A stretch of 64,000 bases of DNA from an uncultured Chlamydiales bacterium (lineage in GTDB: Bacteria > Chlamydiota > Chlamydiia > Chlamydiales > JAAKFR01): positions 1,547,757 through 1,611,756 of the forward strand of contig OY969414.1 of NCBI GenBank assembly GCA_963699155.1. The letters run 5' to 3'. Below, piece after piece: positions 43,533-45,140 of this stretch. Below the pieces are notes generated by a model. It did not search any database, was not told where the DNA came from, and saw only the letters and a program-made list of their open reading frames with translations. Position 1 is the stretch's first letter; each line of letters begins with the position of its first letter. The translations under genes were made by a program, and so were the position numbers.

Positions 43533-45140
43533 TTAGCTAAAGAGAGATTCAAATTGGATGTCAGTTAAAGGGCGGTAGACCTCTTCCATCATCACCTTAA
43601 GCTCTTCACCCTGGCTTTTGATTTTAGGCATATCTAAGCTACTTGCTTGGCTTGCTTCCTTAAGCTCTCTAAGTTTTTGAGTGAGCTTTTGAATCTGTTG
43701 ATCATTCAACACTCTTTCAATAAGATCCCTTTTATTTTGTGGGAGCGTCTTGTAGGTTTCTATTTTGAATGCTAAAAGATTGTAAGTTTTGCCATATTTT
43801 TTAAACTCACAGGCTTCTTTTACGCGCTTTTCCTTCTCTTCCTTGGCATCTTTAGCCTCCTTGACTGCTACAGAACCATCTTTTTTGACTGGTCCTGCTG
43901 CATCAAGGGCTTTATCTAATTCGTCGAGACGATTGATGGCAGTTGCAATTCTATTGTTGAGGATCTCTTTGCTAAGTCCCGCGACAAAAACATAGTTATC
44001 TAGGGCTTCCAGATAAATAAGATGGTCTTCGGGCACATCCTCGAAGGACTTTAGAACTGAAGATTCGTCATATTCTAGACGGACATCAATCGATTCCCGG
44101 TATGTTCTTCGGTTTCTGCGGTCATTCTGATTGAAATTTTGATATTCTTCAAAACGTTGTTTGGAAATAGCGTTAGCACCTTTCATTTTTGTATAGTGGA
44201 GGCTTAAAAACGTGGGATTGGAAGCAAAGATAGGAAGCGGTGGGCAGGATGGATCTACTCCTGTAACTCTTACTTTACTCTCATGCTTCGTCAAAGCGTC
44301 TACTAAGGCACCTGTAATTTGAGGTACCGCACTTTCACCGGCATCACCCTCCACATGCTTTAAGGGTGTGCCAGCCTTCATTTCGCTCACTACGCCTCCT
44401 TTCTTTGCTCTTCCTTTAGGGGCTGTGGCTGACGGAAGAGTTCCTGATGGTGGAAGAGCTCCTGTTGGTGGAGGAGGAGGTGGTGGGGCCAAAGAAGGTC
44501 CCCTTGGTGGAATAACTGGAGGTGCACTTGGCTGAGGGCCTCTTGGGGAGGGCTTTTTTCCGACAGGTGAGGGTAGAGGTCTGGGTCCTGTGGCTGTTGG
44601 AGGAGCGGCTGGTGCTGGTTTGGGACTTTCTGTGGGGGCTGGAGGTTTAAACAGATCTGCAAGGACTGCCCCAGCTGCTGCCCCACGGGCTCTATTAAAT
44701 CTAGGGAATAGACGGAAACGTTCTATCGCCTCTTTCTCTTCTTCGGTTGGCTCCTCAGCTGTTGCAGGAGGCTTAGTTTCTGTAGACGCAGTTCCACTTT
44801 CAGATTCACTGGCTTCATCAGCGGCGGCGGAGAGGCTTGCGTTTGACACGTGCACAGCTTTTTTACAGTTTCGCAGGAGAGCGAAGCTGATAGTAGACAA
44901 GATCCAAATACCAGATAGAGCGATCATGGTGATCGAGACTTGGAAAGGAATCTGGTTTAAAAAGGGGAGGGAGTGGAAAATGCCCTGATGGCTTGCTAAT
45001 GCTAAGAAGCCGGTGACTAGGATGATCGCGGCAATGGCCAACTCCGTCACTAAGGCAGCGATCGCCTTAGGAGGGTTTTTTGGCTCCAGTTGCTCACCGT
45101 TTCGGCATGCTTGGCGACCATAGACAACAGAATAAACCAT
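43533..45140 (-). CDS. 'MVYS' family Inc-like protein with polyproline, WH2-like motif and coiled-coil C-terminus
   Basis: Bilobed hydrophobic domain; PPPPPPT; GGVVSEMKAGTPLKHVE. Confidence 0.75.
   Translation of the reverse strand: MVYSVVYGRQACRNGEQLEPKNPPKAIAALVTELAIAAIILVTGFLALASHQGIFHSLPFLNQIPFQVSITMIALSGIWILSTISFALLRNCKKAVHVSNASLSAAADEASESESGTASTETKPPATAEEPTEEEKEAIERFRLFPRFNRARGAAAGAVLADLFKPPAPTESPKPAPAAPPTATGPRPLPSPVGKKPSPRGPQPSAPPVIPPRGPSLAPPPPPPPTGALPPSGTLPSATAPKGRAKKGGVVSEMKAGTPLKHVEGDAGESAVPQITGALVDALTKHESKVRVTGVDPSCPPLPIFASNPTFLSLHYTKMKGANAISKQRFEEYQNFNQNDRRNRRTYRESIDVRLEYDESSVLKSFEDVPEDHLIYLEALDNYVFVAGLSKEILNNRIATAINRLDELDKALDAAGPVKKDGSVAVKEAKDAKEEKEKRVKEACEFKKYGKTYNLLAFKIETYKTLPQNKRDLIERVLNDQQIQKLTQKLRELKEASQASSLDMPKIKSQGEELKVMMEEVYRPLTDIQFESLFS

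Follow-up and report, generated by a model that had tools for sequence, protein, structure and literature searches.

The stretch of DNA considered here, a window of 64,000 nucleotides from the genome of an uncultured Chlamydiales bacterium (one contig of 2,399,326 bases, 47.5% guanine plus cytosine), carries on its minus strand, at 43533–45140, an open reading frame (ORF) of 535 codons plus a stop. Its product, hereafter P0001, starts with the residues MVYS, continues through a bilobed hydrophobic anchor, an acidic linker and a proline-rich tract into a stretch resembling the actin-binding WH2 motif, and ends in some 235–240 lysine-, glutamate- and leucine-rich residues (Table 1). An earlier note on this DNA had described these features and had read them as an Inc-like protein bearing a polyproline and WH2 cassette in the manner of WASP and WIP, a nucleator or recruiter of actin anchored in the vacuole. 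All of the features are present, and their coordinates had been given correctly to within 2 bases. The polyproline run, noted as six prolines at about 44466–44488, is a run of seven (P7) at residues 219–225, or 44466–44486. The WH2-like peptide, GGVVSEMKAGTPLKHVE, comprises residues 248–264 and occupies 44349–44399 (44349–44400 in the note), and the second amphipathic helix, GALVDALTKH, is found at residues 277–286, positions 44283–44312. The helical character of the C-terminus also agrees with prediction, which is mostly helical there at low confidence. The order of the two central elements, first the proline-rich tract and then the WH2-like stretch, is real.

The anchor shows hydropathy peaks at residues 26–50 and 62–90, the bilobed profile that characterizes Inc proteins. 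The 25 residues ahead of it would constitute the type III secretion signal region. A cluster of type III secretion system (T3SS) genes lies about 4 kb from P0001, at window positions 33257–39652, where sctU, sctV, sctW, a chaperone gene and malQ follow one another in the order typical of chlamydiae. SctU, SctV and SctW score above their NCBIfam cut-offs, the secretion-chaperone match stays below its own, and malQ adjoins; the export route that the Inc reading calls for is encoded close at hand. The bilobed anchor and the T3SS genes of chlamydial type within this window bear out the Inc-like reading of the earlier note, and P0001 is likely to be a secreted membrane protein of this kind. It differs from known Inc proteins in matching none of their Pfam families: a search of P0001 against Pfam, Inc families included, returned nothing at E ≤ 10 except three noise-level matches.

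Table 1. Features of P0001 and of the surrounding island (window positions).
Feature	Position	Strand	Remark
Whole ORF, P0001	43533..45140	-	most likely confined to the species, within a family of Inc-like paralogs
GGAG, 7–10 nucleotides before the ATG	45147-45150	-	consensus match only
Promoter-like site upstream of P0001	45191-45163	-	consensus match only
Hairpin behind the gene upstream of P0001	45202-45170	-	putative, consensus-level
N-terminal 25 residues, start MVYS	45066..45140	-	start common to both neighbouring paralogs
Bilobed hydrophobic anchor	44871..45065	-	lobes ~26–50 and ~62–90, 11-residue loop, then NCKK motif
Ala/Glu/Ser-rich acidic linker, residues 93–165	44646..44864	-	composition; no homolog spans the linker
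Pro-rich region, residues 166–243	44412..44645	-	motifs named in the text
WH2-like stretch, residues 245–268	44337..44408	-	core VVSEMKAGTPLKHV, residues 250–263, 44352-44393
Second amphipathic helix, residues 272–289	44274..44327	-	contains ITGALVDALTKHESK; prediction, low confidence
Middle region, residues 296–430	43851..44255	-	mostly helical, one predicted hairpin; common to one congener protein only
C-terminal family module, residues 431–535	43536..43850	-	family alignment; end F-x-x-[LF]-[FS]
Lineage-specific island, 6.7 kb, ychF to ribF	40796..47472	.	hipA/hipB-like pair, three MVYS genes, insertion sequence
Downstream tandem paralog, 157 residues	42953..43426	-	MVYS start, bilobed anchor, Pro-rich tail, no WH2-like stretch
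Upstream MVYS paralog, split by the insertion sequence	45235..47443	-	N-terminal part 47168-47443; remainder within 45235-45789
IS481-family element	45767-47163	-	perfect 26-bp inverted repeats; interrupts third MVYS paralog

The proline-rich tract and the WH2-like stretch

Behind the acidic linker, residues 166–250 form a tract in which 32 of 85 positions are proline. Measured over 60 residues (28 of them proline), it is the third most proline-rich window of the whole proteome, which holds 31 proline-rich ORFs and only six runs of seven or more prolines, the P0001 run among them. Several short motifs that we take, from general motif definitions, to be docking sites are embedded in it: the A-P7 run, presumably of profilin type; PVIPPR, presumably of class II SH3 type; and KPAPAAP and KPSPRGP, which we assign to the class I SH3 type ([KR]xxPxxP). 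Neither FPPPP nor PPxY occurs in the tract. Judged by composition and motifs, the tract is probably a robust functional element of the protein, and its use for docking to host proteins seems somewhat probable. Because the tract is robust and its motifs are of profilin and SH3 type, P0001 is read here as a platform on which host regulators of actin would dock through proline-rich sequence.

The WH2-like stretch lies 25 residues downstream of the P7 run, and a run of basic residues precedes it. Its positions V250, V251, M254, G257 and L260-K-H-V263 stand in the canonical WH2 spacing, with hydrophobic triad, glycine and LKxV all in place, and the spacing is the same as that of the WIP WH2 (L36, L37, I40, L46-K-K-T49) in the accessible part of its description (PMC7407642). 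Written as a strict pattern, [LIVM][LIVM]xx[LIVM]xxGxxL[KR][KRH][VAT], and scanned in the 2388 ORFs of the proteome (759,585 residues), the motif occurs exactly once, namely here, whereas 20 residue shuffles produced it 0.4 times on average and twice at most.

The phylum itself offers a set of WH2 domains for comparison. A scan of 401 Chlamydiota genomes with Pfam WH2 (PF02205, curated cut-off 23.1 bits) matched 16 places; 13 genomes were matched at E ≤ 0.01 and six over the cut-off, and none of 22 genomes of the source organism's family and none of 14 control genomes gave a match. The matched loci in other Chlamydiota (L137, L138, L139, L140, L141, L142, L150, L152 and L145/L167) encode proteins with a proline-rich tract, a WH2, as a rule an Arg-Arg helix and, for the most part, an acidic tryptophan-containing tail, so arranged that most of the matches appear to be C-terminal modules like those of RickA or WASP. 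Among ten full-length proteins of this set, eight are without a hydrophobic segment and one, from genome G091, has an N-terminal one. The literature searched, whose coverage leaves most subscription journals outside, yielded no description of WH2 proteins of environmental chlamydiae. Ten of the 16 places were used to build a profile; the six left out were two cores with gaps, three that were weak or partial and one second repeat.

With the profile of these ten WH2s, P0001 ranks first among the 2388 ORFs, and with an ungapped matrix of the ten cores its site ranks third of 704,661 proteome windows. The chance of finding such a site within 60 residues behind a proline-rich tract comes to about 0.008, a post hoc figure (31 ORFs × 60 × 3/704,661). 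Some of its wording recurs in the chlamydial set: LKHV in L137, which at 36.3 bits is over the Pfam cut-off; KGTPLKS in L141; and HHVEGD, with the variant LHHV, in L152, which at 19.4 bits is below the cut-off, as is L145. Protein language-model neighbours, which at scores under 0.9 are leads only by the method's own calibration, point the same way. Residues 166–300 lie closest to a bacterial VCD+WH2 cluster (0.78) and a fungal WH2 cluster (0.75), and residues 241–300, from which the proline-rich tract is absent, give a WHAMM-like WH2 cluster as the top score (0.81).

A long series of results weighs against taking the stretch as a working WH2. Pfam WH2 found no match at E ≤ 10 in the whole of P0001 or in fragments of 66 and 26 residues, and in a six-frame scan of the genome its only four matches, all weak, lie away from the P0001 locus. 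Residues 236–300 searched with phmmer against all PDB chains gave no match at E ≤ 10, and the whole protein gave noise only (prefoldin, E 0.86–0.94; a latroinsectotoxin, E 8.9). The first rank under the chlamydial profile corresponds to no more than 7.8 bits and an E-value of 0.37, with only residues 256–266 aligned, and the third rank under the matrix to 5.4 bits, against 44.8–52.4 for the WH2s from which the matrix was built. Looser versions of the WH2 pattern occur in the proteome at or below the shuffle mean. In the language-model query with residues 241–300, only five of the ten best named matches have a family in common.

The deficit is located in the helix. Scored by halves, the matrix gives about +20 bits for G-x-x-LKHVEGD and about −13 bits for the helix half, which opens on Gly-Gly and fills the Leu-Leu-Ile positions with Val-Val-Met. 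The hydrophobic moment of the helix half, 0.12, is the lowest compared, the ten chlamydial WH2s lying between 0.18 and 0.54, and AlphaFold2 models it as coil with a predicted local distance difference test (pLDDT) below 35. In the WIP WH2, according to the accessible part of the source, it is the helix that carries most of the affinity (PMC7407642), which tells against a motif whose helix half is weak. The AlphaFold2 models at large are of little help: without an alignment the whole protein reaches a pLDDT of 44.5, which is uninformative, and residues 296–535 with a six-row alignment reach 52.3, the middle region staying below 60, values too poor for a fold search.

For the WH2 reading of the earlier note, then, register and pattern stand, but Pfam, the PDB and the chlamydial profile do not bear it out, and binding of G-actin by the stretch is, from its sequence, doubtful. 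The profile, PDB and matrix failures, the weak helix half, a motif to be expected 0.4 times per proteome and the looser patterns at or below the shuffle mean favor a different explanation, in which the WH2 likeness is coincidental or a decayed remnant. The middle of the protein would then be a fast-evolving disordered spacer, and function would reside in the anchor and the C-terminal module with no link to actin. What speaks against this explanation is the conjunction of a correct register, basic residues on the flank, the sequence HVEGD that L152 also has, and the 25-residue distance from the P7 run, to which the post hoc figure above applies; WH2 clusters are moreover the nearest in two of two language-model queries, one of them made without the proline-rich tract. 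The relatives of P0001, or the want of them, bear on the same choice.

Paralogs and the insertion island

Searched with an iterated profile, residues 1–100 of P0001 recover 14 ORFs in its own proteome. The C-terminal module occurs in five ORFs of the own genome, in two places in the congener G002 and in one weak place in G136 (three of 29 family genomes). What the members have in common is the anchor and this C-terminal module of roughly 100 residues; the part between them varies from member to member, and coiled-coil repeats or other proline-rich tails take the middle position elsewhere in the family. The best relative outside the genome, a 468-residue protein of G002, illustrates the pattern: it is 40% identical to P0001 over residues 20–94 and 22% identical over residues 303–535 (E 8e-7), with nothing matched between the two parts. 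It is encoded at a different locus, the counterpart of L003 in the source genome.

Wider searches returned little else, and this too counts against the WH2 reading. Compared with 5.8 billion clusters (lengths 294–937), P0001 finds only itself and is thus a singleton, and residues 236–535, searched by HMMER against 1.84 billion representatives, likewise find only themselves. A pattern search of 185,579 species genomes produced 601 matches, none of them confirmed, and 41 related genomes, the own genome included, gave matches to the N-terminal anchor only, in two congeners. In soil-metagenome DNA, three runs of one study contain small parts of the gene (43816–43966, 44522–44848 and 44995–45140), outside which the motif lies. 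No homolog spans residues 95–302, and the family members that were found are without the proline-rich and WH2-like cassette. The earlier note had named a want of LKHV conservation in homologs as one half of what would tell against its WH2 reading, and this half has come out against it: no homolog with LKHV was found, and the paralogs are without the cassette as a whole. Since the G002 match is partial and no other homolog was found, P0001 is most probably a recent addition, confined to this species, to an Inc-like paralog family that is itself restricted to the genus, with a middle part all its own.

P0001 is encoded within an island specific to the lineage, inserted between ychF and ribF, which brings together a hipA/hipB-like pair, three MVYS genes and an insertion sequence (Table 1). 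In the congener G002, ribF directly adjoins ychF-sctU-sctV and the site of the island is empty; in the genome G003 a different insert of three unrelated ORFs occupies the ychF-ribF site. The ychF-ribF junction, which adjoins the genes for T3SS export, is a hot spot for insertions. The IS481-family element that splits the upstream MVYS paralog was recently active, since its three copies in the genome are 99.9–100% identical. A recent transfer of a host WASP or WIP fragment into P0001 was considered and rejected, as there is no detectable similarity and no marked deviation of the island in guanine-plus-cytosine content.

These findings add to the case for a coincidental or decayed WH2 likeness, which gains from the position of the stretch in the unconserved part of the family, where other members have coiled-coil repeats or other proline-rich tails, from the singleton status of P0001, and from an island in flux with an insertion-split paralog next door. 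That explanation is a real possibility. They bear as well on the view that P0001 is not directed at the host at all and either resides in the membrane of the bacterium itself or is a recent orphan gene, weakly expressed or in decay, carried by a mobile island. A singleton in a 6.7-kb island that also holds a hipBA-like pair and a recently active insertion sequence, and that matches no Pfam Inc family, would suit such a view. The frame of 535 codons is nevertheless intact and comes with a GGAG and a promoter-like site, which argues against decay. The anchor is of a type common to 14 paralogs in an obligate-intracellular lineage that possesses a T3SS, and a proline-rich tract of eukaryotic style makes little sense inside a bacterium. 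A role away from the host is, on this evidence, unlikely.

Other ORFs of the window deserve mention in their own right. Two adjacent paralogous ORFs on the plus strand (30155–31537 and 31904–33256), each encoding about 450 residues, have no NCBIfam family and have in common an N-terminal stretch, L-V-D-D-[SC]-L-L-[ST]-I-F, which looks F-box-like. Three very large ORFs are likewise without an NCBIfam family: 746–4321 (minus strand, 1191 residues), 20810–26218 (minus strand, 1802 residues) and 55224–58979 (plus strand, 1251 residues). The first of them has a hydrophobic N-terminal stretch and a proline-rich window, and all three may be further large effectors.

Nucleation, Arp2/3 activation and a second Inc-like protein

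The strongest form of the earlier claim was that P0001 is a vacuole-anchored actin nucleator or a WASP-like nucleation-promoting factor, in which the proline-rich tract would feed profilin-actin to the WH2, the second helix would act as connector and the C-terminus would multimerise the whole. Its attractions are the correct order of the architecture, a nearest cluster of VCD+WH2 type, as in VopL and VopF, for residues 166–300 (0.78, a lead only), and a C-terminal half that is predicted to be helical and could multimerise. There is, however, one WH2-like stretch only, and WH2 domains alone are insufficient for polymerization, as stated in the accessible text of PMC10182996; a single WH2 is therefore not expected to nucleate on its own. 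Pfam finds neither the VCD nor any other domain in P0001.

The second helix fares no better as a connector. It is the only helix predicted within residues 236–300, at low confidence, and has a hydrophobic moment of 0.34. It reads T-K-H-E at the point where seven chlamydial WCA proteins, and one further protein of the same genome (L129, below), have Arg-Arg. Nor does P0001 possess an acidic tail with a tryptophan: its C-terminus is ...FESLFS, its sole tryptophan, W79, is inside the anchor, and a proteome screen found acidic-tryptophan ends in two of 2388 ORFs, P0001 not among them. Eight chlamydial WCA proteins, taken from the WH2 to the C-terminus, gave a poor alignment, and the resulting profile recovered neither P0001 (E 8.6) nor L129. 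Because Lys-His takes the place of Arg-Arg and the acidic-tryptophan tail is absent, an Arp2/3-activating WASP mimic is not supported, and neither is the nucleator claim, given a single WH2-like stretch, no connector helix of the Arg-Arg type, no such tail and no VCD. The full reading as nucleator or WASP-like factor is highly improbable, and autonomous nucleation or Arp2/3 activation by P0001 is, as far as its sequence can tell, hardly to be expected.

A protein encoded elsewhere in the genome has what P0001 is missing. L129 (G000:C1:1794377-1798213, plus strand, outside the window) is an Inc-like protein of 1278 residues with an N-terminal bilobed anchor, about 700 residues of coiled-coil repeats and a proline-rich tract near residues 930–1000. 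Its C-terminus consists of an Arg-Arg helix and then an acidic end, ...EWDI, and it is the clear one of the two ORFs with acidic-tryptophan ends. Read from sequence, this C-terminus is the connector-plus-acidic signature of Arp2/3 activators, and L129 appears a much better candidate for such an activator than P0001. L129 has no Pfam match, its tail is unmatched in 30 related genomes, and a BLASTP comparison of residues 161–300 of P0001 with that tail gave nothing. One might imagine a WASP-like machine split over the two inclusion-anchored proteins. P0001, with its proline-rich tract and WH2-like stretch, would deliver profilin-actin or actin monomers, and L129, with its proline-rich tract, Arg-Arg connector helix and ...EWDI end, would activate Arp2/3, so that the bacterium's own proteins would build an actin coat on the vacuole and no WASP-family protein of the host would be needed. 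Such a division of labor is improbable.

Another locus outside the window is noted for its proline runs. L130 (G000:C1:2224609-2226294, plus strand) encodes 561 residues and has, within residues 168–207, four proline runs that each follow Gly-Gly, three of them P7 and one P5, in a manner that resembles a formin FH1 or the proline-rich region of WASP. It has neither a hydrophobic anchor nor a Pfam family, and a copy of the IS481-type element lies about 550 bp upstream.

P0001 as a proposed docking platform, and its place among known systems

The reading that we tentatively prefer, though we hold it at somewhat less than even confidence, is that P0001 is a type III-secreted, Inc-like protein of an environmental chlamydia that resides in the vacuole membrane, serves as a proline-rich docking platform and possibly has a weak, WH2-like actin site. 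P0001 would leave the bacterium through the T3SS, the bilobed anchor would lodge it in the vacuole membrane, and the remainder of the protein would face the host cytosol. There the A-P7 run would fit ligands of profilin type, PxxPxR and [KR]xxPxxP would fit ligands of SH3 type, and the divergent WH2-like stretch that comes 25 residues after the P7 run may contribute a weak affinity for actin monomers. The outcome would be a local recruitment of the host actin-assembly machinery to the vacuole surface, with neither autonomous nucleation nor Arp2/3 activation to be expected. Because a real proline-rich tail and a half-WH2-like stretch sit together on a membrane protein, P0001 may hold actin machinery of the host at the vacuole of the bacterium.

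Among eukaryotic proteins, the likeness of P0001 is to the WH2 (PF02205) proteins WASP and N-WASP, WAVE and WIP, in which a proline-rich tract likewise stands directly before a motif of hydrophobic triad, glycine and L-K-x-V. It differs from them in failing the Pfam profile, in a short helix that starts with Gly-Gly and in having a single copy of the motif, and from a WASP-type WCA in having neither the Arg-Arg connector helix nor the acidic-tryptophan tail. The environmental WCA proteins (L137, L139, L140, L142, L150, L152 and L145/L167) are from Chlamydiota too and likewise place the WH2 after a proline-rich tract; most of them, however, continue to an Arg-Arg helix, and P0001 reaches only 5.4 bits on their matrix. 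VopL and VopF of Vibrio also place a proline-rich tract before WH2, and the nearest cluster to residues 166–300 is of their VCD+WH2 type, at a score that makes it a lead only. They possess three WH2 repeats and a VCD (PF20792), whereas P0001 contains a single WH2-like stretch and nothing that matches the VCD.

Closer to home are two effectors of Chlamydia, with which P0001 is compared by published description only. SemD (CPn0677) of Chlamydia pneumoniae is, in the accessible text of its description, a membrane-bound secreted protein with a proline-rich domain, two WH2s that bind G-actin and two N-WASP-binding sites (PMC10182996). Like P0001 it is a chlamydial protein of a host membrane that combines proline-rich sequence with WH2, but it acts at the plasma membrane at entry and has two WH2s, whereas P0001 has an Inc-type bilobed anchor and one weak WH2-like stretch. 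TarP of Chlamydia trachomatis is described, in the part of the source available, as a type III effector in which a proline-rich domain is followed by a G-actin-binding domain (PMC6981773). It is, however, a soluble invasion effector conserved across Chlamydia, whose proline-rich domain oligomerises it, whereas P0001 is membrane-anchored and species-specific. The earlier statement that this architecture is not known from characterised Incs may still hold, and no Inc protein with a WH2 was found in the literature searched, within the coverage stated above. The combination of proline-rich sequence and actin binding on chlamydial effectors has nevertheless been published, as far as the accessible parts of the SemD (PMC10182996) and TarP (PMC6981773) papers go.

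The significance of P0001 depends on whether the motif works. If it is inert, P0001 would be one more orphan Inc-like protein with a proline-rich tail, and a caution that a short linear motif, perfect in register and unique in its proteome, can fail every profile test. If it works, P0001 would be an Inc-anchored form of a known combination of proline-rich tract and WH2. Chlamydial vacuoles are wrapped in host filamentous actin, and the mechanism by which actin is synthesised or recruited there is called unclear in the accessible part of PMC6981773; the known effectors TarP and SemD do their work during entry rather than at the inclusion membrane. Direct binding of actin monomers or profilin by an Inc-type protein would then offer a simple answer for actin recruitment in at least one lineage, and P0001 would show the speed at which a host-mimicking cassette can be gained within Inc families.

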